DNA of 64,000 nt. Source: Escherichia coli. GTDB taxonomy: Bacteria > Pseudomonadota > Gammaproteobacteria > Enterobacterales > Enterobacteriaceae. Below are positions 16,029 to 64,000 of the stretch, piece by piece. Position numbers and translations under genes: made by a program. Where the stretch lies: the NCBI RefSeq assembly GCF_024223415.1, contig NZ_CP100503.1. One strand, given 5' to 3'. Numbering within the stretch: position 1 is the stretch's first letter; each line of letters starts with the position of its first letter. The notes beneath the pieces were generated by a model. It saw nothing but the letters and a program-made list of their open reading frames with translations. It had not been told where the DNA came from and searched no databases.

Positions 16029-16032
<4 letters not shown>

Positions 16033-23265: not shown

Positions 23266-23487
23266 ATGGCTACTATCCCTACCCCAACTCATCCTGAATT
23301 TATCTGGCGCTTTTACTCCTGCCAAAAACGTCACTATCACTTCGTTATTGCACCAACAGAAGATGAGGCCCGCTCTCAGCTTCCTGACGCCCCATGTATT
23401 TTCTCTGCCCGTTTTTCCACTGATTCACGCAATTCTCTCAGTTACTGGTGCCTCCCTGTTAACGCTTCTGCTCAGGAGGGACTATGA
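23266..23487 (+). CDS. icd: Icd-like small protein
   Basis: 74 aa from ATG at 23266 with AAGGAGG RBS; shares EFIWRFYSCQKRHYHFVIAPTEDEARSQLPDAPCIFSARF with copies B and C; stop overlaps ant start (ATGA). Confidence 0.6.
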   Translation: MATIPTPTHPEFIWRFYSCQKRHYHFVIAPTEDEARSQLPDAPCIFSARFSTDSRNSLSYWCLPVNASAQEGL

Positions 23488-26759: not shown

Positions 26760-26762
26760 ATC

Positions 26763-27128: not shown

Positions 27129-28181
27129 ATGTCTAATGTCCTGACCGTACACCAAAATTTGCCTGCATTACCGGTCGATGCAACGAGTGATGAGGTTCGC
27201 AAGAACCTGATGGACATGTTCAGGGATCGCCAGGCGTTTTCTGAGCATACCTGGAAAATGCTTCTGTCCGTTTGCCGGTCGTGGGCGGCATGGTGCAAGT
27301 TGAATAACCGGAAATGGTTTCCCGCAGAACCTGAAGATGTTCGCGATTATCTTCTATATCTTCAGGCGCGCGGTCTGGCAGTAAAAACTATCCAGCAACA
27401 TTTGGGCCAGCTAAACATGCTTCATCGTCGGTCCGGGCTGCCACGACCAAGTGACAGCAATGCTGTTTCACTGGTTATGCGGCGGATCCGAAAAGAAAAC
27501 GTTGATGCCGGTGAACGTGCAAAACAGGCTCTAGCGTTCGAACGCACTGATTTCGACCAGGTTCGTTCACTCATGGAAAATAGCGATCGCTGCCAGGATA
27601 TACGTAATCTGGCATTTCTGGGGATTGCTTATAACACCCTGTTACGTATAGCCGAAATTGCCAGGATCAGGGTTAAAGATATCTCACGTACTGACGGTGG
27701 GAGAATGTTAATCCATATTGGCAGAACGAAAACGCTGGTTAGCACCGCAGGTGTAGAGAAGGCACTTAGCCTGGGGGTAACTAAACTGGTTGAGCGATGG
27801 ATTTCTGTCTCTGGTGTAGCTGATGATCCGAATAACTACCTGTTTTGCCGCGTCAGAAAAAATGGTGTTGCCGCGCCATCACCCACCAGCCAGCTATCAA
27901 CTCGCGCCCTGGAAGGGATTTTTGAAGCAACTCACCGATTGATTTACGGGGCTAAGGATGACTCTGGCCAGAGGTACCTGGCCTGGTCTGGACACAGTGC
28001 CCGTGTCGGAGCCGCGCGAGATATGGCCCGCGCCGGAGTTTCAATACCGGAGATCATGCAAGCTGGTGGCTGGACCAACGTAAATATTGTCATGAACTAT
28101 ATCCGTAACCTGGATAGTGAAACAGGGGCAATGGTGCGCCTGCTGGAAGTTGACATCCTCCCCCACCTTCGCACTTCGTGA
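27129..28181 (+). CDS. cre: Cre tyrosine recombinase with altered C-terminus
   Basis: 350 aa; matches P1 Cre as I recall it up to ...MVRLLE, then VDILPHLRTS encoded by IS end instead of DGD. Confidence 0.9.
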   Translation: MSNVLTVHQNLPALPVDATSDEVRKNLMDMFRDRQAFSEHTWKMLLSVCRSWAAWCKLNNRKWFPAEPEDVRDYLLYLQARGLAVKTIQQHLGQLNMLHRRSGLPRPSDSNAVSLVMRRIRKENVDAGERAKQALAFERTDFDQVRSLMENSDRCQDIRNLAFLGIAYNTLLRIAEIARIRVKDISRTDGGRMLIHIGRTKTLVSTAGVEKALSLGVTKLVERWISVSGVADDPNNYLFCRVRKNGVAAPSPTSQLSTRALEGIFEATHRLIYGAKDDSGQRYLAWSGHSARVGAARDMARAGVSIPEIMQAGGWTNVNIVMNYIRNLDSETGAMVRLLEVDILPHLRTS

Positions 28182-28200
28182 CTCAGGAGGGGGATTCCCA

Positions 28201-29433
28201 TTAGTGGGTGACGGCTGATTGCTCAGCGTCTGGTTCCTGCTTCAACGGGCGGTCTGACTGCACCGTCCCTCCACAGGCAAGTACGGCGTGCCCCGCCGCT
28301 AAAATGTTGCGAGCGCCGTTTACATCGGCGTTCGCTGTATATCCACAAGCCCGACACACGAATTTACTTTGTGTCAGGCGGTTTTCTTTCGCTGTATGAC
28401 CACAGCACGCGCAACGCTGGCTTGTGTACGCTGGCGGAACAGCAAGCACCTGACCACCACGCCAGAGCTGCTTGTACTCAAGCTGGCGGCGCATTTCATA
28501 CCAGCCCTGATCCAGTATCGAACGGTTTAAACCTGATTTTGCCCGGACATTGCGCCCCGGCTGGCTGACCGTACCCGCTGCTGACTTTGACATGTTGCTG
28601 ACCTTCAAATCCTCAATGACTATCATTGCGTGGTTTTTGCTGACGGTCGTTGTGACTTTGTGAAGGTAGTCCCTGCGGATATTTGCAATACGGGAATGCA
28701 GTTGCTGTATTTTGCGTTTCTGCTTCTGCCAGTTGTTGCTGAATTTGACCCTGCGGCTTAACTGTCGCTGAAGTCTCGCCAGCTTCTTCTGGTTTTTCTG
28801 AAAACTGTTTACAGGTTCAAAGACTGTGCCATCTGACAGCGTGGCGAGTTTAGCCACGCCAGCATCCAGACCGACTATCGTTGTGCTTGTGTGATTTGGT
28901 TCTGCCGTTTCAATTTCAACCTGAAACGAGATATACCACTGTCCCGCTAACTGACTGATTGTCGCATTTTTGATTTTACCGTTCACACGTTGAGATTGCC
29001 GGAATTTTACCCACCCAAGACCTGACGGTAGCTTCACTCTGCGATTTTCAAGGCAGCAATATTTCTCAAAGTTCACAAAACGGATTGAGTCTCTGCCCTC
29101 ATTTTTTCGTTTCCATACCGGAGCCTTAGCTGCGAGCTTTTTATCAAAACAACGTTTCCATGCGGTATGCAGGTCTTTCAGCTTTTGTTGCAGATTGTCG
29201 GTATAAGCATCCTGTAAGAAGATATATTCCGGCATTTTTTTCCACACTGTAATCATCCGGTTCAACTCGAAAGCCGAAGGTAACTTTTCGCCTGAGCCAA
29301 GTACGCGCTTTGTCTCCGCAAGACCTAAATTCCAGACAAAACGGGCGCAACCACATAACTGCCGCAAACGCTGCGACTGTTCATGCGTTGGTTCCAGTCT
29401 GAATTTGTAGGCTTTCAGGATTAGCATCATCAT
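28201..29433 (-). CDS. tnpB: TnpB (OrfB-family RNA-guided nuclease-like protein)
   Basis: 410 aa; C-terminal RuvC-like and zinc-finger region ([13 protein letters not shown]...[18 protein letters not shown]). Confidence 0.85.
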
Positions 29434-29485
29434 TCAGTGTGTAGTAGATTTTCTTGCAATATTACTGTTTTTACGGCCAACCTCA

Positions 29486-29890
29486 ATGCAAAAATACAAA
29501 ATCAATCGTTCAAGACATGCTGCCTTCCTTTTGCATGTTCATCTTGTCTTTGTAACAAAATACCGTCGAAAGATACTGGGAGAGTTACACTGTGCAGCAT
29601 TCCATCAGTATGCAGCAGAAGTCTGCCGTGACTTTGGGGCAGAACTTAAAGAAAGTAACGGAGATGTCGATCATGTCCACATGCTGATCGAATACCCACC
29701 AACAGTGCAGCTTTCGGTACTGGTTAACTCACTGAAAGCAGTGACATCCCGCCGTCTGCGAAACGAATTTCTTGATTTGCGGGGGGCATACGGAAAAGCC
29801 GTGCTCTGGTCGAGGTCATACTTTGCTGGCTCCTGCGGAGGTGCGCCGCTGGAAGTTGTGAAGCAATATATTCAACATCAGCGAGGCTGA
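29486..29890 (+). CDS. tnpA: IS200-type Y1 (HUH) transposase TnpA
   Basis: 134 aa; HVHLVF, HuH motif DHVHMLI, catalytic Tyr region WSRSYFAGS. Confidence 0.85.
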   Translation: MQKYKINRSRHAAFLLHVHLVFVTKYRRKILGELHCAAFHQYAAEVCRDFGAELKESNGDVDHVHMLIEYPPTVQLSVLVNSLKAVTSRRLRNEFLDLRGAYGKAVLWSRSYFAGSCGGAPLEVVKQYIQHQRG

Positions 29891-29995
29891 GCACCCTTCG
29901 GGCTTTTCAAGCCCGTCCAAATTCCCCTGCCGCCTTATGTCGGCGGGAGTACCCTTTGGAAGTTAAGATGGCGATTAGCCATTAACGCGTAAATG

Positions 29996-30580: not shown

Positions 30581-31645
30581 TCATTCAGCCGCCACAGGTT
30601 TTAACAAGCCAGCATCGAGCAGTTTACGCGTCAACCACTGCTGGCCTTTCCCCGTTAATTGGGGCGTCAGCCGTATCTGGTAGCCCTCTTCATCATCCAG
30701 CACCACTTCTTTCACTGTGAAATATCCGGCGTTTATGTACTGCTGGAACGGTACATTTTTACGTCCACCGGACGCTATCAGGATGCCGTTCTCCCGTAAC
30801 CAGGCAAACAGCGCGTTTTGCTTAAGTCCAACAACCTTTGCAAAATTCCCAATCAGGATTCCATTAGCCACTGATACCCGGTCGGCAAAATCGACTTTAG
30901 GAGCGGCGGCCACCAGCTGCTGATTTAGCTGGTGGGCTTTCTGTTCCAGAAGTTGCTTTTGTTCAGCCAACTCGGCAGCCAGGCGGAGGGCTTCGGGGAG
31001 TGTCTGGGGGATCGCTGGAGAAGCAGCGCTAACCTGCTGCAACTCCTCCAGCTTGTCGATCAACGAACGGCGGACCGCTTTTGACTCGCGCGCGGCAACT
31101 CGCAGGGCTTGTTTGTAGGTCATGGTTATGACCTCAAAAGAGCGCCCAGCCCTTGTGCCATGGGATTTTACGAAAGTTTCGTAAAATTCCCCATCAAGTT
31201 CATCCTTAATTCTATTGAGAAAATCGTTATTGCGGATCTCATTTTCCCCACATAGCTTGCGCGCCTCATTGACCATCTTTAACAGTGTCTGGCTGTCGAT
31301 TGTGTCGCCCGTACTGGGGATAACATCCATGGCTGGTAGTGGTGTGGATTCTATCAAAGGCTTTGTAACGACAACATCTGGTTTGCTTGCTTTCATTCTG
31401 TGTGCCTCCTTGCGTGCTTCGGCGGTTACGGTTGCATAATCAAGACGACCCTGTTCGAGCAGGTATTCACGGATATCAGTTAGCAGAATGCGGTGAACCG
31501 CGTTCTTGTCCTTTCTCCGGTAAAGTTGTTTGGTGATCATGAAGTAGTTGGCTATAACACCAGGAATGTCCCTGGCGCTGATACAGATTGTGTGCTGTTC
31601 AATAGCCTCGATCATTTCTTCACGGGTAACTAATGACGTTCTCAT
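30581..31645 (-). CDS. ant: Antirepressor Ant paralog B (KilA-C C-terminal domain)
   Basis: 354 aa; N- and C-terminal regions near-identical to Ant A/C, central region resembles Ant D. Confidence 0.7.
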   Translation of the reverse strand: MRTSLVTREEMIEAIEQHTICISARDIPGVIANYFMITKQLYRRKDKNAVHRILLTDIREYLLEQGRLDYATVTAEARKEAHRMKASKPDVVVTKPLIESTPLPAMDVIPSTGDTIDSQTLLKMVNEARKLCGENEIRNNDFLNRIKDELDGEFYETFVKSHGTRAGRSFEVITMTYKQALRVAARESKAVRRSLIDKLEELQQVSAASPAIPQTLPEALRLAAELAEQKQLLEQKAHQLNQQLVAAAPKVDFADRVSVANGILIGNFAKVVGLKQNALFAWLRENGILIASGGRKNVPFQQYINAGYFTVKEVVLDDEEGYQIRLTPQLTGKGQQWLTRKLLDAGLLKPVAAE

Positions 31646-31863
31646 AGCCCCTCCTGAGCAGAAGCGTTAACAGGGAGGCACCAGTAACTGAGAGAGTTGC
31701 GCGAGTCAGTAGAAAAGCGTGCAGAGAAAATGCAGGGAGCGTCAGGAAGCTGAGAACGGGCCTCATCTTCTGTTGGTGCAATGACGAAGTGATAGTGACG
31801 TTTTTGACAAGAATAGAAGCGCCAGATAAATTCCGGGCGTGCGCAAGGATTGGCATTAACCAT
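31642..31863 (-). CDS. icd: Icd-like small protein
   Basis: 73 aa; identical to Icd copy C; overlaps ant B start. Confidence 0.6.
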   Translation of the reverse strand: MVNANPCARPEFIWRFYSCQKRHYHFVIAPTEDEARSQLPDAPCIFSARFSTDSRNSLSYWCLPVNASAQEGL

Positions 31864-32023
31864 AGTTACGGCCTCACAAGTTGAATTAACAACCTGCTAC
31901 CCGCTGTCAAACAGGTGGCAGGACGTGACAGGGTTGACAGACTGGCACTTGTGAAACCAGCAGGCCGAAGCCTCCCCATCACGCCCCACCATAATTCGGG
32001 CGTAACGCGGTTTTACGGACACA

Positions 32024-32170
32024 AAAATACCGCAATAACGGAGTGATGCGGTTGTCCGCACAAGTATTCAGGCTGTCAAACCCGGTCGCAGAATTTGCTA
32101 CGACGCAGGAACTATAAGCCTGAACGACGGGAAGATCAATAGTCTGGCGTCCAATAGTAGTTTATTTGTT
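32024..32170 (-). ncRNA. c4: Putative c4-like antisense RNA of module B
   Basis: Colinear (no indels) with the module C leader; GGTTTGACAGCC element at 32071-32082 (rc). Confidence 0.3.
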
Positions 32171-33547: not shown

Positions 33548-33564
33548 ATTGCTCTAATAAATTT
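33548..33564 (+). promoter_or_regulatory. C1 operator of immI-like module C
   Basis: ATTGCTCTAATAAATTT, perfect consensus. Confidence 0.65.
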
Positions 33565-33574
33565 GATTTTTTAG

Positions 33575-33721
33575 GGCAAATAAACTACCATTGCGCACTG
33601 CCCTATTGATCTCCTTACCGTTCAGGCTTATATTCATGCCGTCGTAGCAAATTCTGCGACCGGGTTTAGCAGCCTGAATACTTACGCGGACAACCGCAGA
33701 TATCCGATATTGCGGTATTTT
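33575..33721 (+). ncRNA. c4: Putative c4-like antisense RNA of module C
   Basis: Leader with GGTTTAGCAGCC (33663-33674) and hairpin ACCGCAGA-N-TGCGGT plus ATTTTC (33693-33721); complementary element CTGCTAACC at 33805-33813. Confidence 0.3.
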
Positions 33722-33881
33722 CATGTCCGTATAACCGCGTTACGCCCGAATTATGGTGGGGCGTGATGGGGAGGCTTCGGCCTGCTGGTTTCGTAAGTGC
33801 CAGTCTGCTAACCCCGTCACGTCCTGCCACCTGTTTAGCAGCGGGTCGCAGGTTGTTTTATCAACTTACGAGGCCGTAACT

Positions 33882-34103
33882 ATGGTTAATGCCAATCCTT
33901 GCGCACGCCCTGAATTTATCTGGCGCTTTTACTCCTGCCAAAAACGTCACTATCACTTCGTTATTGCACCAACAGAAGATGAGGCCCGCTCTCAGCTTCC
34001 TGACGCCCCATGTATTTTCTCTGCCCGCTTTTCCACTGATTCGCGCAACTCTCTCAGTTACTGGTGCCTCCCTGTTAACGCTTCTGCTCAGGAGGGACTA
34101 TGA
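33882..34103 (+). CDS. icd: Icd-like small protein
   Basis: 73 aa from ATG at 33882; stop overlaps ant C start. Confidence 0.6.
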   Translation: MVNANPCARPEFIWRFYSCQKRHYHFVIAPTEDEARSQLPDAPCIFSARFSTDSRNSLSYWCLPVNASAQEGL

Positions 34104-35212
34104 GAACATCGTTAGTTACCCGTGAAGAGATGATCGAGGCAATTGAACAGCACACTGCCTGTATCAGTACCAGGGATATACCGGGCGTTATTGCCAACTA
34201 CTTCATGATCACCAAACAACTTTACCGGAGAAAGGACAAAAACGCGGTTCACCGCATTCTGCTAACCGATATCCGTGAATACCTGCTCGAACAGGGTCAT
34301 CTGAATTACGCAACCGTCGCAGCCGAAGCACGCAAGGAGGCACACAGAATGAAAGCAACTAACGTTAAATCAGAAAAAATTTATGCACCTTCAGTTCAGG
34401 AATCGGAACTGGTGGTTGTTCAGAATCAGCCGGATGAAATTCCCGTTCTGGAATGGCAGGGAGTACGTGTCGTGACAACCGAAACTCTTGCTAGAGGGTA
34501 TGGGACCGAAACTAATAACATCAAAGTTAACTATACGCGTAATGCTGATCGCTTTGAGGAAGGTAAACATTACTTTCTACTAACTGGTTCAAAATTAAAA
34601 GAATTGAAGGACAAGGTTACTCAAAGTAACTTAGTCGCACCGCGAGCAAAGCACCTCACTCTCTGGACGGAACGCGGCGCAGCCCGCCACGCTAAAATGC
34701 TCGAAACCGATCAGGCATGGGCATTCTTTGAAAAACTGGAAGACAGCTACTTCCGACAAAAAGAACAGCAACCGATCGCAATCCCCCAGACGCTTCCTGA
34801 AGCTCTGCGCCTGGCTGCCGAACTGGCTGAACAAAAGCAACTTCTGGAACAGAAAGCCCACCAGCTAAATCAGCAGCTGGTGGCCGCAGCCCCTAAAGTC
34901 GAGTTTGCCGACCGGGTATCAGTGGCCAAGGGGATCCTGATTGGGAATTTTGCAAAGGTTGTTGGACTTAAGCAAAACGCGCTGTTTGCCTGGTTACGGG
35001 AGAACGGCATCCTGATAGCGTCCGGTGGACGTAAAAATGTGCCGTTCCAGCAATACATCAACGCCGGGTATTTCACGGTGAAAGAAGTGGTGCTGGATGA
35101 TGAAGATGGCTACCAGATACGGTTGACGCCCCAGCTAACTGGGAAAGGCCAGCAGTGGTTGACGCGTAAACTGCTCGATGCTGGCTTGTTAAAACCGGTG
35201 GCGGCTGAATAA
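34100..35212 (+). CDS. ant: Antirepressor Ant paralog C (KilA-C C-terminal domain)
   Basis: 370 aa; closest to Ant A throughout. Confidence 0.7.
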   Translation: MRTSLVTREEMIEAIEQHTACISTRDIPGVIANYFMITKQLYRRKDKNAVHRILLTDIREYLLEQGHLNYATVAAEARKEAHRMKATNVKSEKIYAPSVQESELVVVQNQPDEIPVLEWQGVRVVTTETLARGYGTETNNIKVNYTRNADRFEEGKHYFLLTGSKLKELKDKVTQSNLVAPRAKHLTLWTERGAARHAKMLETDQAWAFFEKLEDSYFRQKEQQPIAIPQTLPEALRLAAELAEQKQLLEQKAHQLNQQLVAAAPKVEFADRVSVAKGILIGNFAKVVGLKQNALFAWLRENGILIASGGRKNVPFQQYINAGYFTVKEVVLDDEDGYQIRLTPQLTGKGQQWLTRKLLDAGLLKPVAAE

Positions 35213-35245: not shown

Positions 35246-35254
35246 GCGGAAAGT

Positions 35255-35503
35255 TTAATCAGCATTCAGGAGCAATGCGTTATCTATGATGATCTGCTCC
35301 CATTCTTCGAATGCCCGGTCGCGGACGCCCTGGGGAACACTGTTAGTTTTGAAATCGACGACCATACGCCATTTCCCGTCCGGACGGTACATGCGCAGAG
35401 CTTTACTTCCCCCTTCCCTGCGCACCTCAACGTTATGCTTGTCAGCAAACTCTTGTAATGCTCGTAGCGTCCCATGCTTTACTGTGTAGTATCGCTTTTT
35501 CAA
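35255..35503 (-). CDS. Hypothetical protein
   Basis: 82 aa; last gene of the minus-strand operon headed by the giant helicase gene. Confidence 0.4.
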   Translation of the reverse strand: MKKRYYTVKHGTLRALQEFADKHNVEVRREGGSKALRMYRPDGKWRMVVDFKTNSVPQGVRDRAFEEWEQIIIDNALLLNAD

Positions 35504-35940
35504 GTTTTCTCTCCAGCCTGTGCCAAGGCTTCAACTTCCAAATCGTAAGACTCAAACTCATAGTCCTGGTCGTCAACTTCTTCAGGCACTGGCAGTAAGT
35601 GCCAGGCTGAGTATATCTGACCATTATCAAAACGCTCCTGGCTGTAGAGCGTCGCGGCTATGAGTGTTAGCGCCGGGCGGTCATAACGGTAAATTTTGCG
35701 AACGTCACGGTCAACGAGACGACCGAAATTACCATAACCGCGCTCCAGTAATAATTTTTTAATTTCCGGCCAGTATGGACCATAGCTGCGGTACAGGCGG
35801 TGATTTTTCAGTAATCGCCCGCGTAGCCCTGACAGGAAGAAATCAACGTATTCGTCTTCTGTCTTTCCTAACAACGCTGTACGGAGTACCGCCTCAAGAT
35901 ATGTTTTATTCGGTTTTATTGTATCAGATAGTGTGGCCAT
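35500..35940 (-). CDS. Hypothetical protein
   Basis: 146 aa; overlaps downstream ORF by 4 bp. Confidence 0.4.
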   Translation of the reverse strand: MATLSDTIKPNKTYLEAVLRTALLGKTEDEYVDFFLSGLRGRLLKNHRLYRSYGPYWPEIKKLLLERGYGNFGRLVDRDVRKIYRYDRPALTLIAATLYSQERFDNGQIYSAWHLLPVPEEVDDQDYEFESYDLEVEALAQAGEKT

Positions 35941-35973
35941 ATTATGCGACGCCCGGCGAACCGGGCGCTCCTG

Positions 35974-38900
35974 TTATGCGTATTGTTGGATGACGGCCAG
36001 AACGTCCGCCACGTTGTGTTTTGTCTCGATAATCCACCAGTTACCCGGGAAATCGCTGTTCTTCGCCTTCGCTGGCAGCCAGCGAGCGCCGAATTTCGCC
36101 TTGATTGCGTCTTTCGCACGGAAAAGAACCCCTTTCATGCCTGAGGCTTCCTGAAGCCCAAATACCTCGCCAGCGGCGAATTTTGGTGCGTACATCATCT
36201 TCAGGTCGGCGGTGGATACGCGATAATTCAGGCCAAGAGACTGAGCTATGCTGGTGGCATCACCCTGTATTGATGATAACTCTTCTTGTTTCTCGTTTCT
36301 GGCGGCAATCTCTTCCTCCGTGATGTTGCCAAGGGCCAGGTTTATCCGATCAGCGTCGGCCTGTTTCTCTTCATCGGTGCGCCCGGCAAGAACCGTGTTA
36401 ATTCTCTGCAATATCTCCACATGATTCTTGCGCATGCTGAGCAATTCCGGCGTAACCTCGTTAAGATCCACCAGCCCAAGGATGGCAAGGTCGGAAAACA
36501 TTGATACCAGGTTGTAGGTCATGCGATAGCTGAGTTGACCATAGGCTGATGGCAACTTCACCGCATCCATTTGATAGGCATCCATAAATTTAGAGCCGTC
36601 GTTTACGACATCCGCTATTGCAGGTGTGATTTTCCCTGTGGTGGCGGCCTCCCTGATTGCTGTTACCCACGATTGAGTCAGCGCGGCGACTGCATGATTC
36701 AGATTGGCTTTCCGTTCTGCTGCGATGCGCGCGCTTGCTGCGTCCATTGCCTGCTTGATCTCGGCTTTATTGCTGTAAATGCCAATGGTGCCAAACTGTG
36801 CTGTGGTGATCTCATAATCTGACGCCCGGAACTCATTGGTACCGAAAATGGCATTGGTGACTTCAAGTTCAGAATCCCCGTTACGAGTAGCCCCCTGGCT
36901 TGTTTTTTCCGGCATTCTGGCGATCGCATCCGCTATTTTCTCCTGAATTGCTTCAGGGGATAGCGTATCTCCGTATGACGCGATTACATCGCCATAATTG
37001 GAGCCAAACAATTCAACCAGGAATGTTTCTGCCGAACGGATCTGGCGGTTATTCCCTTCCGACATCATACCAAGCACCCATTTTGCAATTGACGACTTCA
37101 GCGCGCCGTCACGGCGATCCGGGTAAACCGCATGCTTCAGTGGGTCCGTATAGGTACCAACAAAATCAATGCTATAGCCTGACTCTGTAGTCTGAACGCC
37201 GTATGAGTCAGTGATTTTGATCATGCCGCGCTGCTGGAAACGGTAGAAATCGTCACAGGAAATGATGTCGTTAATCCCGGCGATGGAGACGCCACCACTG
37301 ATTTTCTGCATAACAGCATCTTCATCGGGAGTTACATCCACCTGTTTATCCAGCGTCTTCACATCCCAGTTACCCGATTTGGTGCCTTTGAAGGTAAAGA
37401 TGATCTCCACGTCTGCGCGCTGGCTGTCGAAGTCCAGCGACTTAATGCGAACGATATCACCGGCACAATCGTAGTATTGGCCTACACGCCATGAGCGATC
37501 GCCGATAACAAGGAACTCACTCGCATGGTTAACCAGGTCAGGATCAACATCCAGAATGCCTTTATTTATTGCATCCTCCACCAGCGGGCGCAGGCGTTTG
37601 ATATCCGTCGCGGCCTTCTGAGTACGGTTCAATAATTTCTCATAGCGGGAGATGGCTTGAGAGATATTAGCCTTGCGCTGAATGGCGTTTTTCAACGACG
37701 CGCGATACTGTGCTAACAACATACGGTCTGTGTGATGGACGCTCCCCCAGCGGGCCTTCCAGTCTGCGTTATCAGCTGCTTTGGCCATTACCGCCTGTTT
37801 GAATTTAGCTACCTCGGCGGTGGTCTTTTCAAGTTCCGCTTTGCTTCGCTCTAATTCAGCGGTAAGTACCTCCACATCCTCGCCAGCTGCGTGCTGCGCC
37901 TTGATGTAGTTCTGAAGGTCGATAGTAGCCTGTTCTTTCTGGCGAGCGCGTTGCGCGGCTTTCGCCTTATCCATTTGAACCTGCATCATTGCCAGACGTT
38001 CGCCATCATCCTTAGCGGTATACATCTGCATTTCGATCATATCGTTGGCGTCGGCGTTCTCCATTTCAGACTTATCTGAGCGGAGGATATCGGAGATCCA
38101 GCCTGCTTTACGCTTCAGCGTCTTCAGTCGGTATTCATCGAAAGAACCCTTGCCGCAGTAGTAGTGAACGCGAACGCTTGCACGGTTGGAACCAACTCGG
38201 GCACCGCGACCGTTACGCTGTGCGATACTGGCTGGTGTCCATGGCAACGTCAGATGATGGATGTCAGTCGTTCCTCGATGCAGGTTGATACCCACCTCTG
38301 CCTTTTTGTTGCAGATGATGATCGGAGTCCGGCCCTCCTGGAAGTCGGCAGCAATCTTTTCCAGCCCACCCAGCGACATTTCATTTTGCTGCGCGATATA
38401 GGCGTCATACAGAGCCATTTGCTCGTTGTATTTCGCTATCTGTGCATCTGTTGGTTCATCCGGTAGCTCTTTCGGCGGTTTAACCGCTTTCAGTTTCTTA
38501 CCGGTTTTACCTGCCTCGGCAACCGTCTGAGCATTCAGGATCCCCACCTTTGAAGGTTCAAGGTTAAGAGCATTGCAGATAATGCGCTTGAGCTTCTGGT
38601 GTTGCGTTTTTTCATCGGTGAAGATGATTTGCTTACCTTCCGGGAAAAACTCCTTCAGCGTGGCGATCAGCTTCGCGTATTTCGGCGTAACGGGGTGAGT
38701 TACGGTCTGTTCGTCAATGCCAAACCTGGCCAGGCGCTTATTCACTTCCTGCTCGAACGCTTCCGGAACCTGCAACTGAATAAACTCGCCCTTATCTATC
38801 AGGGAGTATTGCGATTGCTGCGTGATCGAATCATCACTGTCGTCGTCTTCGCTGGTGGCTTGTTTAGGCAAACTGTCCGCCAGCTGCTGCACCGCATCGG

Positions 38901-40863
38901 CGTACTCCGGCAGGAAACGATAGGTGATCCTGCGATAGTACAGGTCCATGTCAGTACATACGCGGTCCATATCCCTGATTATTGAGAAGATCGGACGGGC
39001 TTTCTCGTGCTCAATCACGCCGTCTTCATTGACCGAGGTCGTTACGCCATTGTTGGCTTTGGCTGCCGCTTCCGCCTGCTGACGCAATTCTTCATACGCC
39101 GCCAGTTGTTCTTCCGTAAGTGGTGCATCCTGCTGGTGTTCGTCCAGTTCCGGGATCTCCACGGTATCCTTAACGTCTTCCGCCGTTTTAAGCGTTGTCC
39201 AGCGATGGAATATGCCGCGCAGCGCATCAAGGTTTTCAAAGCCCACCAGCGCCATTTTTTCTTCAACTTCACCGCTAATTTTCTGTACCGTTTCCAGCCT
39301 GGTCTTGCCGAAGAATTTAACGAAGTCATCAGGACCGTAGATCCCCATCTTCTGCCAGTATTCCTTCGGCAGCACATGAGAAAGCATGTTGTATGCATCG
39401 ATCGGGGTGTTAACGACTGGCGTTGCAGTCAGGAGAACCGGTCCGCGCCCACCATTCTTTTTCATCAGGTACGCGTTTTTAATTGCCATATCCCGCGCCG
39501 ATTGCGCCACCGCGCTGGTGGGCAGATAGGCCAGTTGTGACGCTTCGCGACCATTTTTATAGCTATTGCGGTAGTTGTGACCTTCGTCAGCGATCACACT
39601 ATCGAAGCCCATATCCTCAAAGTACGGATACTTCTCTGCTTTTTCGGTGCCGGTATCTGAATACTCCGACAATACCCGGCGACGCGCGGCCTCTTTGCGG
39701 TGGGAGTCGGAGTCCATTGCGCTGGCTACGCGCCCGGCGGCAACGAAGTCATAAAGCATATCCTGTGCATGCTCATCTACGGTGTCATCACGTAGCGGAA
39801 TGCGGGCGTATTGTTCTTTGGTAAACACGACTGCACGGTAATTTGAGTGCGGGATCGCGTTCATCCGCGCCGTGATAGTGGCTTCATCTGCCAGCTTAAG
39901 AGCATCGCGCATAACTGGAGTGCCATCAGTACCAAGAACAGGTTTACCGTTCTCATTGAGCACCGGCACCTGGCGAATCTGATCGCCATCCATCAGCACA
40001 TCAAGACCGACGAACAGGTAGTTACTGAATGCCTCTTCACTCAGGAACTCTTTTGCTTCGTAATACCAGTTTTCCAGCACTGATTTAGGCACTACATACG
40101 CAGTACGGGTGGAACGACCGTTCTCATAGTTGAACGCCTCAAGCGCCAGCGCGGTCGTGGTTTTACCCAGCCCGGTACCGAAGCCCAGGATGCCGCGCCC
40201 ATCTTCGGACAGTCGGCGCACCTCGCTATTCTGGTAATCAAATGGCTGTCGCTTACCGCTTAATCCCTTCAACCCAAGCGGATCGCCAGAGTGTTCATAC
40301 GGGATATTGCTATTGAACACATCGTTGTATTTGGCAACCAGCTCATCGTAGCGATCGTGCGTCTTGATCCACTTATTGAACTGGTCCTCAAGCAGTGCCA
40401 TCTGCTCGCGGTAGCCGTTCGCCGTCGCGCTATCTTTGCCACCGATACGCGCACCATTGAGATACTTTTCCAGCTGTGCCGGGAACCCGGTCGCGTTTTC
40501 ACCTGATTTACGGTCCCACTCGTAGCGGATCTCGCCTGTTTCTTTATCCTTGCGCTGGACGACACCGTATCGGTGCCCGACGAACAGACCATCACCACCG
40601 TGATAGGTGTCAGAAACCATTTCGTCGCCTTCCAGCTGCACTGACTGCACATAGCGAAGATCCGGATAGCCGTTTTCCTGCAAAAATTCCAGAATGACGG
40701 AACGGTCGAACCAACGGCTATTGAGCTTAAAGCGGATATTCTCTGCTGGCGTCTTGATGCGCTTCTCTTCGATCGCTGCCAGCTGATTAAGGACGTTGTT
40801 CTTTACCCAGTGCGCCGTAAAGCCCCGTCCTTCAGGTCGGGGATATAAGGCGCGGTTTTCCAC
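35974..40863 (-). CDS. Large SF2 helicase-domain protein, 5'-truncated by IS insertion (DarB-like anti-restriction candidate)
   Basis: 1629 codons; Walker A GFGTGLGKTT, DEGH box, TATP, QRNGRGARVGS; first 19 codons (40807-40863) are IS left-end sequence, host-derived part starts at 40806. Confidence 0.5.
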   Translation of the reverse strand: MENRALYPRPEGRGFTAHWVKNNVLNQLAAIEEKRIKTPAENIRFKLNSRWFDRSVILEFLQENGYPDLRYVQSVQLEGDEMVSDTYHGGDGLFVGHRYGVVQRKDKETGEIRYEWDRKSGENATGFPAQLEKYLNGARIGGKDSATANGYREQMALLEDQFNKWIKTHDRYDELVAKYNDVFNSNIPYEHSGDPLGLKGLSGKRQPFDYQNSEVRRLSEDGRGILGFGTGLGKTTTALALEAFNYENGRSTRTAYVVPKSVLENWYYEAKEFLSEEAFSNYLFVGLDVLMDGDQIRQVPVLNENGKPVLGTDGTPVMRDALKLADEATITARMNAIPHSNYRAVVFTKEQYARIPLRDDTVDEHAQDMLYDFVAAGRVASAMDSDSHRKEAARRRVLSEYSDTGTEKAEKYPYFEDMGFDSVIADEGHNYRNSYKNGREASQLAYLPTSAVAQSARDMAIKNAYLMKKNGGRGPVLLTATPVVNTPIDAYNMLSHVLPKEYWQKMGIYGPDDFVKFFGKTRLETVQKISGEVEEKMALVGFENLDALRGIFHRWTTLKTAEDVKDTVEIPELDEHQQDAPLTEEQLAAYEELRQQAEAAAKANNGVTTSVNEDGVIEHEKARPIFSIIRDMDRVCTDMDLYYRRITYRFLPEYADAVQQLADSLPKQATSEDDDSDDSITQQSQYSLIDKGEFIQLQVPEAFEQEVNKRLARFGIDEQTVTHPVTPKYAKLIATLKEFFPEGKQIIFTDEKTQHQKLKRIICNALNLEPSKVGILNAQTVAEAGKTGKKLKAVKPPKELPDEPTDAQIAKYNEQMALYDAYIAQQNEMSLGGLEKIAADFQEGRTPIIICNKKAEVGINLHRGTTDIHHLTLPWTPASIAQRNGRGARVGSNRASVRVHYYCGKGSFDEYRLKTLKRKAGWISDILRSDKSEMENADANDMIEMQMYTAKDDGERLAMMQVQMDKAKAAQRARQKEQATIDLQNYIKAQHAAGEDVEVLTAELERSKAELEKTTAEVAKFKQAVMAKAADNADWKARWGSVHHTDRMLLAQYRASLKNAIQRKANISQAISRYEKLLNRTQKAATDIKRLRPLVEDAINKGILDVDPDLVNHASEFLVIGDRSWRVGQYYDCAGDIVRIKSLDFDSQRADVEIIFTFKGTKSGNWDVKTLDKQVDVTPDEDAVMQKISGGVSIAGINDIISCDDFYRFQQRGMIKITDSYGVQTTESGYSIDFVGTYTDPLKHAVYPDRRDGALKSSIAKWVLGMMSEGNNRQIRSAETFLVELFGSNYGDVIASYGDTLSPEAIQEKIADAIARMPEKTSQGATRNGDSELEVTNAIFGTNEFRASDYEITTAQFGTIGIYSNKAEIKQAMDAASARIAAERKANLNHAVAALTQSWVTAIREAATTGKITPAIADVVNDGSKFMDAYQMDAVKLPSAYGQLSYRMTYNLVSMFSDLAILGLVDLNEVTPELLSMRKNHVEILQRINTVLAGRTDEEKQADADRINLALGNITEEEIAARNEKQEELSSIQGDATSIAQSLGLNYRVSTADLKMMYAPKFAAGEVFGLQEASGMKGVLFRAKDAIKAKFGARWLPAKAKNSDFPGNWWIIETKHNVADVLAVIQQYA

Positions 40864-41280
40864 CTAACCAGGTGTTTGCTGTTGTTCAATGTATTGGCGG
40901 ATGATGGATATTGGTGCGCCACCGCAGCTACTGGCAAAATAGCTGGGACTCCATAAAACGCCTTTGTAGTAATATCGGGCTGCAATATCTGGTCGATCTC
41001 GTCGCAATAATCTACTCGATACGCCCTTGAGACTGTTCACCAGGCTGGATATCGCCAATTTGGGGGGATAGTTAATTAGCAGGTGAACGTGATCTCGTTC
41101 TCCATCCATTTCAACCAGTTCAGCTTCAAAATCAGCACATACACTTGAAAAGTAAGTGCGTAGTTTTTCTATTGCGTCATGGTCAAAAATCTGACGTCGG
41201 TATTTTGCGACAAAGACCAGGTGAACGTGCATCAGGAAGACGCAGTGTCTTCCACGTCGGATATCAGTTTCTTTTTTTAT
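40864..41280 (-). pseudogene. tnpA: IS200-type transposase tnpA with start codon changed to ATA
   Basis: Copy 3 has ATG at the equivalent position (63558-63560); copy 2 has ATA at 41278-41280; ORF track only finds a TTG-initiated 178-aa extension. Confidence 0.5.
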
Positions 41281-42511
41281 GGACCAAAGTATAATTTGGC
41301 TTATGAAACGACTACAAGCTTTCAAATTCCAGTTAAGACCAAATGGACAGCAGGAGCGTGAAATGAGGCGCTTCGCGGGCGCATGTCGTTTCGTTTTCAA
41401 TCGTGCTCTGGCGCTTCAGAATGAGAATCATGAGGCCGGGAACAAATATATTTCTTATGCAAAGATGACTTCCTGGCTGGTTGAATGGAAAAATGCTACT
41501 GAAACGCAATGGCTTAAAGATTCTCCCTCACAGCCATTGCAGCAGTCACTGAAAGACCTTGAGCGAGCCTACAAAAATTTCTTTCAGAAGCGTGCCTCTT
41601 TTCCCCGCTTCAAAAAGCGGGGACAGAATGATGCATTCCGCTATCCGCAGGGCGTTAAGCTCGACCAAGGGAACGGTCGTATTTTTCTGCCAAAACTTGG
41701 CTGGATGCACTACCGGAACAGCCGTCAGGTCTCGGGGATTGTGAAAAACGTCACTGTCAGCCAGTCCTGCGGTAAGTGGTACATCAGTATTCAGACAGAA
41801 AGTGAAGTATCAACTCCGGTTCACCCTTCAGCATCAATAGTCGGTCTGGATGCAGGCGTGGCTAAACTCGCCACGCTGTCAGATGGCACAGTCTTTGAGC
41901 CTGTAAACAGTTTTCAGAAAAACCAGAAGACGCTGGCGAGACTTCAGCGACAGTTAAGCCGCAAGGTCAAATTCAGCAACAACTGGCAGAAGCAGAAATG
42001 CAAAATACAGCGACTGCATTCCCGTATCGCAAATATCCGCAGGGACTACCTTCACAAAGTCACAACGACCGTCAGCAAAAACCACGCCATGATAGTCATT
42101 GAGGATTTGAAGGTCAGTAACATGTCAAAGTCAGCAGCGGGTACGGTCAGCCAGCCGGGGCGCAATGTCCGGGCAAAATCAGGTTTAAACCGTTCGATAC
42201 TGGATCAGGGCTGGTATGAAATGCGCCGTCAGCTTGAGTACAAGCAGCTCTGGCGAGGCGGTCAGGTGCTTGCGGTTCCGCCAGCGTACACAAGCCAGCG
42301 TTGCGCGTGCTGTGGTCATACAGCGAAAGAAAACCGCCTGTCACAAAGTCAATTCAGATGCCAGGTATGTGGATATACAGCGAACGCCGATGTAAACGGC
42401 GCTCGTAACATTTTAGCGGCGGGGCACGCCGTTCTTGCCTGTGGAGGGATGGTGCAGTCAGGCCGCCCGTTGAAGCAGGAACCCACCGAAATGATTCAGG
42501 CGACAGCCTGA
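41279..42511 (+). CDS. tnpB: TnpB
   Basis: 410 aa; C-terminal 230 aa nearly identical to tnpB at 28201-29433, N-terminal half divergent. Confidence 0.85.
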
Positions 42512-42592
42512 ACGTAGCAGGAATCCACGTCCTTCAGGGCGTGGAGGATGTCAATGGAGCCTCCCCTTCTCTGCCGACGTTCAGGGGGGTTT

Positions 42593-43630
42593 ATGAAAAC
42601 ACCTCTCGTCACCCGTAATGACATAGCCGAAGCGATCGCCCTGCATACTGCCTGTATGCCGACACGGGAGATCCCCGGCGCAATTGCCAACTATTTCATG
42701 ATAACCAGACGTTTTTATACCCGAACAGATAAGGCTGTGATCAACAAGCTACTGATAGCCGAGATCAGGGATTATTTGATTGAACAAGGACGTCTACGTT
42801 ACGCAACAGTGGCAGCAGAAATGAGAAAGGAGGCACATAGAATGACCGGTAATAATTTAAATGTTGAAAAACCAGCACCTGTTGCTTCAGCTACGCCAGC
42901 ACCAGCCGTGAATATCATCCCCAACACCGGAGACACAATCGACAGCCTGACACTGTTAAAGATGGTCAATGAAGCGCGTAAGTTATGTGGGGAACCAGAG
43001 GTTCGGAACAACAAATTCATCGAAAAAATACTCGATGAGCTTGATGGTGAGCACTACACAAAAAGTGTAGTGGAAAAAATGAACAAAACATCAATGCTTG
43101 TCATAACCATGACTTTCAAACAAGCCCTGCGAGTCGCCGCGCGCGAGTCAAAAGCGGTCCGCCGTTCGCTGATCGACAAACTGGAAGAATTACAGCAGGC
43201 AAACTCACCTACCCCATCGATCCCCCAGACATTACCAGAAGCCCTACGCCTGGCTGCCGAGTTGGCAGAACAGAAAATGCAGCTGGAACAACAGCTGGTG
43301 GCCGCAGCCCCTAAAGTCGATTTTGCCGACCGGGTATCAGTGGCCAATGGAATCCTGATCGGGAACTTTGCAAAGGTCGTTGGACTTAAGCAAAACGCCC
43401 TTTTCTCATGGTTGCGCCAGAACGGCATTCTCATGGCTTTTGGTGCGCGCAAAAACGTACCGCGCCAACAGTACATCAACGCCGGGTATTTCACGGTGAA
43501 AGAAGTGGTGCTGGATGATGAAAATGGCTACCAGATACGGCTGACGCCCCAATTAACGGGTAAAGGCCAGCAGTGGTTAACTCGCAAGCTACTTGATGCT
43601 GGTTTGTTAAAACCAGTAGCAATAGGTTAA
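42593..43630 (+). CDS. ant: Antirepressor Ant paralog D at the native position upstream of kilA
   Basis: 345 aa from MKTPLVTRND; preceded by 38 bp remnant of icd 3' end (…LPFSADVQGGL*) then the IS right end. Confidence 0.7.
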   Translation: MKTPLVTRNDIAEAIALHTACMPTREIPGAIANYFMITRRFYTRTDKAVINKLLIAEIRDYLIEQGRLRYATVAAEMRKEAHRMTGNNLNVEKPAPVASATPAPAVNIIPNTGDTIDSLTLLKMVNEARKLCGEPEVRNNKFIEKILDELDGEHYTKSVVEKMNKTSMLVITMTFKQALRVAARESKAVRRSLIDKLEELQQANSPTPSIPQTLPEALRLAAELAEQKMQLEQQLVAAAPKVDFADRVSVANGILIGNFAKVVGLKQNALFSWLRQNGILMAFGARKNVPRQQYINAGYFTVKEVVLDDENGYQIRLTPQLTGKGQQWLTRKLLDAGLLKPVAIG

Positions 43631-60429: not shown

Positions 60430-63128
60430 AAGAGCTGTGCTATGGATCTGTTTGCAGTGGAATTGAAGCCGCGAGTATTGCCTGGGAACCGTTGGGTATG
60501 CGTCCGGCGTGGTTTGCTGAAATCGAGCCTTTTCCATCAGCCGTTCTTGCGCACCGCTGGCCCCATGTCGCCAACCTTGGCGACATGACAAAACTTGCCA
60601 AAAAAGTCCTGGCTGGGGAAATCGAATCCCCTGATGTGCTGGTGGGAGGGACACCATGTTTTACCGCGGGCCATATGGTTCTTTGTAAAAATGGTTATAA
60701 ACCAATAGAAGATGTTTGCCCTGGCGATTACGTAGTCAGTCATCTCGGGCGGTTACAACAAGTAAAAAAAGTTGGTTCAAAAATAGCTAATACGGGGTTA
60801 CTTAATGCCGTTGGGCAGCCTTTAGGTATAAGAACAACCAACGACCATCCCTTCCTGGCGGTTCGGTGGAAAGCCCAAAACACCCGGAAAAATGGCACAT
60901 ATTTTAAGAGAGAGTTGTTGTCTGAACCGGAATGGCGAGCAGCATGTGATATGCCGGGATATCAATGGTGTGCTCTAACTAATTTCAATATTGCATCTCC
61001 AGATATTTGTTCTCGGTTCTTGTCTGAAGAACAGGCTATGTATCTTGCGGGCGCTTATGTTGGCGATGGATATATTAGGAGATGGAGAGGTAAATCTAAG
61101 AAGGCGGTTGTTTTTGGCATAAATTGCCAGAAATTGAGAAAGTTTCATTGCCGCATATCAGAAAACATATTTTCCGTGGCAAGCGAAATCCGAGGGAGCA
61201 TCAAAGTAACCTTGAATGATACGTGTTATGCCAATTGGCTTAATGAACATTTTGGCGAGTTAAGCCATGCTAAGCGTATCCCTGCATGGGTGATGTCGCA
61301 TCCATTGCGTCATGTGTTTTTACAAGGCTATCTTGATACTGATGGGACACCAAGTGGTAAAGCGGGATTTAGAATTAATAGTGTTAGTCCTGCGCTTGCT
61401 TGGGGCGTTGCGGAGTTGTCACAGACTTGTGGTTATGTTTCTTCGGTCAGCTTTATTGAAGTTGAGCCCAAAAAAGTGATTGAGGATCGCGTGGTAAATC
61501 AACGGAATTATTATCAGGTAACAATCTGCCCGCAGAAATTGTCACGTAAATCAAGATTGGCTCATGGAATGCTTTTACGAACAGTCAAAGAGTTTAAATC
61601 GGTAGGCCTAGATACTGTATACAACATAGAAGTCGAAGGTGATCATTCCTATATCCTCAATGGTGCGGTGGTCCATAACTGTCAGGCATTCAGTATCGCT
61701 GGATTACGTGGCGGGCTTGATGATGAGCGTGGCGCGCTAACTTTAAAGTATGTGGAGCTTGCAAATGCAATTGACGACAAACGGGCTGAGTCATTTCTCA
61801 AACCAGCCGTTATCGTCTGGGAAAATGTCCCAGGAGTCTTGTCATCGGCAGATAACGCCTTCGGATGTTTCCTTGCCGGATTGGCTGGAGAAGATGTGCC
61901 ATTTGAACCAGGTGATCGACCTGAATCAGGAAAAAGCAACGCGTTCTGGCGGTGGGATGGCAAAACCGGTTGCCATGTTCCAAAGTGGCCGCAGTGTGGT
62001 TGTATTTATGGACCGCAGCGAAAGGTGGCCTGGAGAATCCTTGATGCCCAATACTTCGGAGTGGCACAACGACGCCGACGCGTGTTTGTTGTCGCAAGTG
62101 CTCGAACAGACCTCGATCCCGCAACGGTACTTTTTGAGTTCGAAGGCGTGCGCCGGAATATTGCGCCGAGCCGAAAAAAGAAGGAAATCGCTTCCGCCAT
62201 TACTGCAAATGGCGCTGCAATCAGTGGCGAAAGCCTAAATCCATGCCTACACGCTGGCATGTCCCCCGGTATGAAATCGACGAAAGCCGTAAACGCTTTC
62301 AGGATGGCAGCATTTGGGGAATATATTGACGATGAAACCGCATCGACAGTAAAGGCAAGAGATTTTAAAGATGCCACTGACCTTGCCGTTTTTAGCAGCA
62401 CAGGAGCAGGTTTTTGGTCAGAAGGGCATGGTACATTGCGGGCACGTGAGCAAGAAAGCCATGAGCATCTTGTTACATTGGCTTTTCCTGAGCGTATGAG
62501 CGGTACACAACATGCTGCAACTAAGAATACTTCACCATCTCTAATGGCTAAAAATCCAACAGCTGTTTGCTATGAAGTAAGAAACGCAGAAGTAGCTGTC
62601 CGCCGTCTTACCCCTGTCGAATGTGAAAGGCTGCAAGGTTTTCCTGATGGGCATACGTTGATCCCGACGGAAAAGCGTAAAAAAGTTAATTCAGATGAAC
62701 TGGCATATCTTCGCAATCACTATCCAGATTTAAGCGAAGAAGAGGCCGCGATGCTTGCAGCTGACGGACCGCGTTACAAAGCGATCGGCAATAGTATGGC
62801 AATACCAGTAATGCGCTGGATTGGCGATCGGATTACTAAGGCCGTATGTCGGCAGAAAGAAGGAAGTGAAACAAAAGAGCGAAAAGTTAAACCAGCGGCA
62901 GAATTCGAACGGTCCATATTCAAATGGGCTGGTGGAAAATTTGGTGTTCTGGAACAAATCTTTCGCTATTTGCCAGAAGGGAAGCGCCTGATTGAACCTT
63001 TTGTCGGTGGCGGAGCTGTCTTCACGAATGCCGGATACCAGGAAAATCTGCTAAATGATGTGAATGCTGACCTGATTAACTTTTACCCAGTGCGCCGTAA
63101 AGCCCCGTCCTTCAGGTCGGGGATATAA
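60426..63128 (+). CDS. dmt: Bifunctional DNA methyltransferase Dmt (C5-cytosine MTase domain with intein, Dam-like domain), 3'-interrupted by IS
   Basis: Motif [14 protein letters not shown] split by intein; ENV, QRRRVF motifs; Dam-like FKWAGGKF...[10 protein letters not shown]...DLINFY; last 14 codons are IS-derived from 63087. Confidence 0.8.
60657..61679 (+). other. Intein (341 aa) with LAGLIDADG homing endonuclease domain
   Basis: Begins Cys (CFTAGH...), block [17 protein letters not shown] motifs [12 protein letters not shown] and [11 protein letters not shown], ends ...[21 protein letters not shown] followed by +1 Cys. Confidence 0.85.
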
Positions 63129-63143
63129 GGCGCGGTTTTCCAC

Positions 63144-63560
63144 CTAACCAGGTGTTTGCTGTTGTTCAATGTATTGGCGGATGATGGATATTGGTGCGCC
63201 ACCGCAGCTACTGGCAAAATAGCTGGGACTCCATAAAACGCCTTTGTAGTAATATCGGGCTGCAATATCTGGTCGATCTCGTCGCAATAATCTACTCGAT
63301 ACGCCCTTGAGACTGTTCACCAGGCTGGATATCGCCAATTTGGGGGGATAGTTAATTAGCAGGTGAACGTGATCTCGTTCTCCATCCATTTCAACCAGTT
63401 CAGCTTCAAAATCAGCACATACACTTGAAAAGTAAGTGCGTAGTTTTTCTATTGCGTCATGGTCAAAAATCTGACGTCGGTATTTTGCGACAAAGACCAG
63501 GTGAACGTGCATCAGGAAGACGCAGTGTCTTCCACGTCGGATATCAGTTTCTTTTTTCAT
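63144..63560 (-). CDS. tnpA: IS200-type Y1 transposase TnpA (intact ATG start)
   Basis: 139 aa from ATG at 63558-63560 (MKKETDIRRGRHCVFLMHVHLVF...); HuH motif DHVHLLI. Confidence 0.8.
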   Translation of the reverse strand: MKKETDIRRGRHCVFLMHVHLVFVAKYRRQIFDHDAIEKLRTYFSSVCADFEAELVEMDGERDHVHLLINYPPKLAISSLVNSLKGVSSRLLRRDRPDIAARYYYKGVLWSPSYFASSCGGAPISIIRQYIEQQQTPG

Positions 63561-64000
63561 GGACCAAAGTATAATTTGGCTTATGAAACGACTACAAGCT
63601 TTCAAATTCCAGTTAAGACCAAATGGACAGCAGGAGCGTGAAATGAGGCGCTTCGCGGGCGCATGTCGTTTCGTTTTCAATCGTGCTCTGGCGCTTCAGA
63701 ATGAGAATCATGAGGCCGGGAACAAATATATTTCTTATGCAAAGATGACTTCCTGGCTGGTTGAATGGAAAAATGCTACTGAAACGCAATGGCTTAAAGA
63801 TTCTCCCTCACAGCCATTGCAGCAGTCACTGAAAGACCTTGAGCGAGCCTACAAAAATTTCTTTCAGAAGCGTGCCTCTTTTCCCCGCTTCAAAAAGCGG
63901 GGACAGAATGATGCATTCCGCTATCCGCAGGGCGTTAAGCTCGACCAAGGGAACGGTCGTATTTTTCTGCCAAAACTTGGCTGGATGCACTACCGGAACA
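63559..64000 (+). CDS. tnpB: TnpB (5' part, continues beyond window)
   Basis: Same sequence as tnpB at 41279; divergent from tnpA with overlapping CATG starts. Confidence 0.8.
   Translation, partial: MDQSIIWLMKRLQAFKFQLRPNGQQEREMRRFAGACRFVFNRALALQNENHEAGNKYISYAKMTSWLVEWKNATETQWLKDSPSQPLQQSLKDLERAYKNFFQKRASFPRFKKRGQNDAFRYPQGVKLDQGNGRIFLPKLGWMHYRN

Follow-up and report, generated by a model that had tools for sequence, protein, structure and literature searches.

How does the gene for a giant helicase come to begin inside an insertion sequence (IS)? The question is raised by an open reading frame (ORF) of 1629 codons with a GTG start, located at 35974..40863 on the minus strand of a 64,000-nucleotide (nt) stretch of Escherichia coli DNA (contig NZ_CP100503.1, assembly GCF_024223415.1), hereafter the window. 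A previous sequence-only reading described the ORF just as we find it, guessed from its architecture that it was a DarB-like helicase lacking its 5' part, and left an IS-mediated deletion, an inversion and a misjoined contig as explanations. Comparisons with phage P1 and its relatives suggest that the 1629-codon ORF is a by-product of a deletion, a stranded darB pseudogene and not a new helicase gene, a reading that we infer in part. The window probably comprises most of a defective plasmid of P1-like phage-plasmid origin, in which the deletion arose via two IS insertions and recombination between the copies.

The darB remnant and its IS-derived start

Blastn against P1 aligned window 35248-40806 collinearly with P1 9743-15301, at 98.5% nucleotide identity. 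P1 darB is located at 10469-17236 on the minus strand and encodes 2255 amino acids, and the remnant in the window (35974..40806, minus strand; 98.5% nucleotide identity) corresponds to DarB codons 646-2255 and the stop codon; collinearity with full-length DarB is thus lost. The P1 match ends at 15301, where the IS-derived codons join DarB codon 646 in phase 0. The 1610 retained codons show 99.3% amino acid identity to P1 DarB, with zero frameshifts or internal stops, and the codon differences between the remnant and P1 darB comprise 49 synonymous and 12 nonsynonymous changes. Megablast of window 35500-40806, which contains ulx and darB, against phage records gave identities of 98.6% to P1 and 99.1% to Salmonella phage SJ46. 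Because there is no disabling mutation and the differences from P1 are mostly synonymous (49 versus 12), the comparison indicates that the darB remnant was truncated recently.

The guess of a DarB-like protein without its N-terminal methyltransferase, which had been offered together with a call for a comparison with P1 DarB, is borne out by that comparison and by the domain searches. PHROG 1685 aligned with ORF residues 20-1629 over profile positions 646-2278, and Pfam detected SNF2-rel_dom (2.3e-5) and Helicase_C (5.9e-6) in the retained part. The SF2/SNF2-type helicase region of DarB is present and the N6-adenine methyltransferase domain is deleted; the Pfam N6_Mtase/Eco57I match covers residues 90-290 of P1 DarB, inside the 645 amino acids that are gone here. 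The N-terminal 645 amino acids of DarB had zero tblastn matches anywhere in the window, in agreement with the earlier claim that the 5' part of the helicase gene is missing. Downstream of darB, lxc (35255-35503, minus strand) and ulx (35500-35940, minus strand) are intact. The P1 context of lxc-ulx-darB-prt, the darA operon and the capsid genes is not preserved as a whole: lxc and ulx are kept, and prt, pro and darA are absent.

The opening 19 codons of the ORF (40807..40863, minus strand) are the reverse strand of the IS left end, from the tnpA stop codon to the IS tip. These 57 nt (40863-40807) are all IS sequence, as the sequence-only reading had supposed. The GTG at 40863-40861 directly follows the tnpA TAG at 40866-40864 in the same frame and is the first start-type codon past that stop; this adjacency is probably a coincidence. 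Amber read-through at 40861-40866 would fuse TnpA to DarB 646-2255.

The interval missing between darB and icd

On the far side of the IS lie a remnant of icd and the ant genes, as had been noted from the sequence. Codons 61-73 of icd and the stop codon (42555..42596, plus strand), which start at P1 48650, are followed by the antirepressor gene ant1/ant2 (42593..43630, plus strand). No in-frame start codon for the icd remnant is present upstream within the IS. Severed from c4, from the 5' part of icd and from its native promoter, ant1/ant2 would now stand behind tnpB of the IS without its native control, c4 and icd codons 1-60 being gone. Next after ant1/ant2 come kilA and repL, and the exact 345-amino acid Ant1 protein is widespread on ~90-kb P1-like contigs with an intact icd.

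Blastn of the whole window against P1 yielded two long segments. Segment S1 (window 40-40806) corresponds to P1 73030 through the end of the P1 sequence and on from position 1 to 15301, with substitutions, and segment S2 (window 42555-63086) corresponds to P1 48650-68049, from icd codon 61 on. The flanks of the IS between S1 and S2, copy A, are non-contiguous, as previously claimed: they are separated by 33,348 bp in P1 (15302-48649) and by 32,039 bp in pMTY1886_untypable_1 (hereafter pMTY1886), a related plasmid with an intact backbone. The lost block includes the 5' part of darB, the portal, head protease, lysis and ssb genes, the darA operon, cin and the tail fibre genes, as well as the baseplate genes, sit, the tail tube gene, sim, c4 and icd codons 1-60. 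Tblastn of the window with the DarB N-terminus, Prt, Pro, Lyz, Ssb, DarA, Cin, S, BplA, Sit, Tub and SimC found a match for none of the 12 queries, and the controls gp23 (99.8%) and RepA did match. Both flanks of copy A retain the P1 orientation and order. Because the two flanks are collinear with P1, the event is read as a deletion and not an inversion; the latter is ruled out by the orientation of the flanks together with the absence of the missing genes from the window. Of the three explanations that had been left standing, the deletion thus holds, the inversion falls, and the misjoin is weighed below. We consider it very probable that the ~32-33-kb deletion with an IS in its place is real.

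IS copy A spans 40807..42554 (plus strand; 1748 bp), with ends defined by the P1 alignment and by other copies, and is an IS609-like member of the IS200/IS605 family. Terminal inverted repeats are absent, and the target is not duplicated. Copies on the unrelated E. coli plasmids pPEC422_6 and CP128966 are 99.7% identical to it, and chromosomal copies labelled IS609, the labels being those of PGAP, show ~93.7% nucleotide identity. The tnpA gene (40864..41280, minus strand) encodes a Y1/HUH transposase of 138 codons with HVHLL and SPSYF motifs (NCBIfam NF033573, 146.9 bits, cutoff 55). The tnpB gene (41303..42511, plus strand) is an intact ORF of 402 amino acids that belongs to the RuvC-like, RNA-guided endonuclease family (NCBIfam NF040570, 390.9 bits, cutoff 100) and carries a CxxC...CxxC pattern; the same ORF is called by PGAP in two unrelated copies of the IS, L003 and L004. 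An imperfect palindrome (40812..40853, plus strand) is located subterminally at the left end (LE), with a DNA fold of -14.8 kcal/mol and z = -3.7, and a hairpin (42524-42545, plus strand; DNA fold, z = -3.3) is located at the right end (RE), which terminates in ...GTCAA. The LE directly follows the tetranucleotide TTAC in darB (40803..40806, plus strand), and the TTAC|LE junction recurs in L003, in L004 and in the second copy of the window, copy B. The IS therefore has the set of features by which IS200/IS605 elements are recognised, namely a Y1 HUH TnpA, a TnpB, subterminal hairpins at both ends and an LE located 3' of a fixed tetranucleotide. Copy A does not qualify as a simple insertion, its flanks being non-contiguous in intact relatives. 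This arrangement of ends agrees with IS608-type elements, the left end of which inserts 3' of TTAC, a fixed tetranucleotide, on one strand (PMC5027513). Insertions of IS609 are also known in P1-like plasmids, with a right cleavage site of TCAA in pJIE250-3 (Venturini et al., PMC6906374).

The tnpA gene of copy A starts with ATA and not with ATG, with a T at position 41278 where L003, L004 and copy B have C, and copy A, its start codon lost, may be unable to produce a transposase of its own. This position (41278 in copy A, 63558 in copy B; IS nt 472) is the sole difference between the two copies across 914 nt, and the ATG is kept in copy B. A third, different IS200/IS605 element occupies ~28150-29964, between cre and c8, with tnpB at 28201-29433 (minus strand) and tnpA at 29486-29890 (plus strand). 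It is a simple insertion relative to pMTY1886, its left end does not adjoin TTAC, and it shares 647 bp (96% identity) with copy A in inverted orientation, an arrangement that could support inversions.

Copy B is represented by its nt 1-914 (63087..64000, plus strand), which are 99.9% identical to copy A and stop where the window ends. A TTAC within dmt (P1 68049) directly precedes the left end of copy B, and the Dam (D12) domain of Dmt is truncated. At the opposite end of the window (1..39, plus strand), the last 38-39 nt of an IS right end (IS nt 1711-1748 = window 2-39), which belong to copy B or to a further copy, are joined to dbn at P1 73030, a position preceded by TTAC in both P1 and pMTY1886. 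The left end of copy B and the right-end tip have the same orientation, and the second IS copy appears to have done between dmt and dbn what copy A did between darB and icd. The block concerned, S4, consists of the 3' part of dmt, the tRNAs, tciABC, ban and the 5' part of dbn and measures ~5.0-5.6 kb (5,562 bp in pMTY1886); Ban and TciA had zero tblastn matches in the window. If both IS pieces are one copy, the alignments suggest that the source is a ~64.8-kb circle of the order S1-IS-S2-IS from which S4 is missing. Alternatively, S4 could still be present between two separate IS copies beyond base 64000. The 38-nt IS tip that opens the window was also considered as a clue to the k-mer size of the assembler, an idea given up because the numbers do not fit.

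On the icd side, the TTAC that precedes the flank TGGAGCCTCC... in P1 is also present in pMTY1886 and in 10 other intact P1-like contigs with an identical Ant1. At the darB and the icd breakpoint alike, the break falls exactly at the 3' side of a TTAC, and the two TTACs are on the same strand. The frequency of TTAC is 0.004 per position on that P1 strand, and the probability that two right-end-side breakpoints would fall there by chance is ~1.6e-5. Given these odds, the far ends were therefore made by the site specificity of the element itself and not by random illegitimate recombination.

Origin of the junctions

The favoured route, which is the classical one, would start with two ordinary IS insertions of the same orientation, one 3' of a TTAC in darB and the other 3' of a TTAC in icd. 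The resulting 1.7-kb direct repeats would then undergo homologous recombination, by which one copy would be left and all of the intervening DNA removed. In this way the IS left end would be fused to the 3' 1610 codons of darB and its right end to icd codon 61. Local hopping on the same replicon would make several insertions plausible. That the deletion is real is supported by the assembly itself, in which copies A and B, differing at one base (IS nt 472), are kept apart and the sequence runs unbroken through the third IS and several ant modules of 80-95% identity. Deletions in which IS elements removed parts of the P1 backbone are, moreover, documented (PMC6906374).

Several points weigh against this route. 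Recombination would call for as many as four insertions of the same orientation within a single plasmid lineage. The window both begins and ends within an IS, which fits a circle linearised in copy B or a contig broken at a repeat, and S4 may not have been deleted, as copy B and the tip at 1-39 may be two copies that flank it. None of the four junctions, nor a single-insertion precursor at any of the four sites, was found in the public records searched, and the proposed intermediates are therefore hypothetical. Megablast of the IS with its flanks against INPHARED phages, PLSDB plasmids and complete E. coli genomes retrieved the IS alone (46% coverage) and no junction, and a synthetic copy-B junction query likewise matched no junction. 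Exact 28-30-mers over the junctions had 0 matches in genome, viral and metagenome contig collections, and exact-protein look-up returned no record of the fusion ORF (1629 and 1548 amino acids) or of the Dmt-IS fusion (900 amino acids).

The misjoin left over from the sequence-only reading is an unlikely source of this arrangement. It would imply a true plasmid of ~100 kb with simple IS insertions at darB, icd, dmt and dbn, of which the assembly skipped segments of 32-33 kb and 5 kb at the IS repeats; such insertions would carry the junctions RE + TGGACCGTCGG... (darB 5' part) and ...CACTTAGTTAC + LE (icd 5' part). Skipping at identical repeats would yield exactly the canonical TTAC|LE and RE|flank junctions found here, the window starts 39 nt before an IS right end and stops inside an IS copy, like repeat-broken contigs, and the arrangement is absent from every other record searched. 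However, the two visible copies are distinct at nt 472 and were kept separate, and the contig crosses copy A, the third related element and the repeated ant modules, points at which an assembly from short reads, limited by repeats, would normally stop. The artefact, too, calls for four copies of the same orientation on one plasmid. Complete P1-like plasmids of 66-68 kb occur in PLSDB, and P1 backbone deletions bounded by an IS are documented (PMC6906374). Were the arrangement an artefact after all, it would be a caution on IS repeats in phage-plasmid assemblies.

Two readings would go beyond routine decay, and as a pair we hold them to be quite unlikely: first, that the TTAC-to-TTAC gaps were made directly by TnpA; and second, that TnpB guides against intact icd and dbn provide an RNA-guided weapon against intact P1-like competitors. 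The second draws on the finding that the ~16-nt guide of a TnpB guide RNA comes from DNA next to the right end and that the transposon target site is the transposon-associated motif, TAM (Karvelis 2021, PMC8612924). A putative omega/reRNA region, composed of the tnpB 3' end, the right end and 20 nt of icd flank (42555-42574) as the would-be guide, can be placed at 42384..42574 (plus strand). An Rfam search for an omega RNA gave no family-level match, and the only hits at 42384-42565 were sub-threshold ones to HgcC, sot0042 and RAGATH-18. TTAC+TGGAGCCTCCCCTTCTCTGC, from intact icd, has an exact match in 10 intact P1-like contigs, and TTAC+TGTCCGCGATGATACCTGGC, from intact dbn, has an exact match in P1 and pMTY1886. 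If TnpB is active, the right ends at 42554 and at window 2-39 would each specify a guide against wild-type P1 sequence, and the guide targets would exist in wild-type P1-like phages and not in the plasmid described here. A guide-RNA link between the paired breakpoints was rejected, as TGGA-CC is all that the darB and icd flanks have in common and there is no shared sequence between those of dmt and dbn.

As for the first, a one-step deletion by TnpA is very unlikely on its own account. TnpA would cleave the RE of a single copy and a distant TTAC on one strand and join the RE 3'-OH past the TTAC, and the interval would be released as a circle, in the manner of an ordinary integration directed at a site within the same molecule. 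The far breakpoint is exactly TTAC| in both bridged gaps, the chemistry is the same as that of TnpA on a target (PMC5027513), half as many insertion events are needed as in the recombination route, and no single-insertion precursors exist in any collection searched. On the other hand, sites 32-33 kb apart must be single-stranded simultaneously, and the tnpA gene of copy A is now without its ATG, though copy B has it. The product sequence would be identical to that of recombination between copies, which makes the two routes indistinguishable here. The joining of an RE to a distant same-strand TTAC would, if true, be a deletion mode for IS200/IS605 elements; a limited literature search turned up no description of such a reaction, and the mentions of 'deletion' in PMC5027513 concern other matters.

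That the fused ORF is an expressed, functional stand-alone helicase, that is, DarB without its methyltransferase, driven from the IS by tnpA read-through and re-initiation at TAG-GTG, is barely conceivable. In its favour, none of the 1610 DarB codons is disrupted, tnpA transcription runs toward the remnant with the tnpA stop abutting an in-frame GTG, and the ATG at codon 82 is preceded by a GGAAGG-like motif. Against it, the intactness is accounted for by how recent the event is, 40300-41400 contains no promoter-like site directed at the remnant, with a site number that does not exceed that of shuffled sequences, no convincing Shine-Dalgarno sequence precedes the GTG at 40863, the ATA start of the copy-A tnpA makes coupling unlikely, and the darA, portal and head-protease genes are absent from the window by tblastn. 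P1 DarB is a capsid-packaged protein and needs functions of the darA operon. Devoid of a promoter, a ribosome-binding site and the methyltransferase domain, and located on an element that would be unable to build the capsid that delivers DarB in P1, the remnant is most simply taken as a recent pseudogene.

The remaining replicon and its relatives

The maintenance genes are kept, including homologues of repA and parAB, phd/doc, cre/lox and c1, and the capsid and sheath genes are also kept. With the portal, lysis, tail-fibre, baseplate, tape-measure and tail-tube genes lost, the plasmid would no longer be able to be a phage. The RepA homologue (55747-56688) is only 39.5% identical to P1 RepA, and the replicon type is therefore different. 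Between rep and parA, a GIY-YIG nuclease gene is annotated in pMTY1886; the ORF in the equivalent place of the window (54645-55454) had no NCBIfam match. Two small ORFs (26457-27122) are located between lox and cre, where P1 has no such genes, and the annotation of pMTY1886 gives their equivalents as a toxin of the HigB family and a transcriptional regulator.

An intein of ~340 amino acids (~60660-61679, within the ORF 60426-63128) interrupts the C5 cytosine-methyltransferase domain of Dmt at the catalytic motif GGTPC|QAFS (Pfam Hint_2, LAGLIDADG_3 and Intein_splicing), and it is absent from P1 and pMTY1886. In place of P1 84482-87970 (pmgT to humD), the window has a type I restriction-modification (R-M) operon (11556-17591) encoding HsdR (1038 amino acids), HsdS (412 amino acids) and HsdM (520 amino acids); a similar substitution has been described in other P1-like plasmids (PMC6906374). 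Three extra ant-like modules, at 23293-24599, 30581-32141 (inverted) and 33550-35212, are 71-81% identical to the c4/icd/ant region of P1. Two of them lie near c1 and mat and one replaces res/mod, which brings the antirepressor modules of the plasmid to four in total; pMTY1886 has the same set, with icd-like genes annotated beside them.

For annotation, the ORF should be entered as a darB pseudogene, truncated and fused to an IS end, and the replicon as a P1-derived plasmid unable to form particles. As prophage decay the event is of an ordinary kind, its junctions being unusually tidy, and it provides a clean example of how a P1-type phage-plasmid becomes a plain plasmid through the IS-bounded loss of its morphogenesis and lysis blocks. 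The bridging element is of the IS200/IS605 type rather than the usual DDE type, the TTAC-to-TTAC geometry at up to four breakpoints is a handy case for asking whether TnpA itself creates deletions, and the putative natural TnpB guides would match wild-type P1 sequences. The type of the IS, the exact TTAC breakpoints and the second IS copy across the window ends all lie beyond what had been read from the sequence before.

Compared with P1 DarB (YP_006479), a 2255-amino acid protein with N6-methyltransferase and SF2 helicase domains that acts in defence against restriction, the ORF shares the helicase domains and the ulx and lxc neighbours. It lacks the first 645 amino acids and the PdarB promoter region, in place of which it has 19 IS-encoded codons, and its host element is without the portal, protease and darA-operon genes. 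The IS has in common with IS609 and IS608, elements of 'peel and paste' single-strand transposition, a Y1 TnpA, a TnpB, subterminal hairpins and the lack of inverted repeats and target duplication. Its LE is located 3' of TTAC, as in IS608. Its right end terminates in TCAA, like that reported for IS609 in pJIE250-3, whereas the left cleavage site is TTAT in that case and TTAC here (PMC6906374). It differs from IS609 and IS608 in that tnpA and tnpB are divergent and in that the flanks of each copy are non-contiguous in intact relatives.

The closest intact backbone is that of pMTY1886 (E. coli TUM1886, NZ_CP128972.1, 97,409 bp), with 98-99% identity across the retained segments. It has the same extra icd/ant modules and the HigB-type toxin gene, but it keeps both missing blocks (32,039 and 5,562 bp), carries an IS at none of the four TTAC sites, and is without the type I R-M block, the Dmt intein and the third IS. 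IS-bounded deletion derivatives of P1-like plasmids are a known phenomenon (PMC6906374), and what is particular here is the type of the element and the exact TTAC-to-TTAC geometry. In plasmids such as pTZ20_1P and pSvP1 (Venturini et al. 2019, PMC6906374), IS-mediated events likewise removed from P1-like backbones the modules for tail fibres, baseplate and tail tube or the dmt-tRNA-ban region. However, the elements involved were ISEc84/IS3 in pSvP1 and IS26 in pTZ20_1P, in addition to an IS186B insertion with a small deletion, whereas the element described here is of the IS200/IS605 type and every breakpoint is at TTAC.

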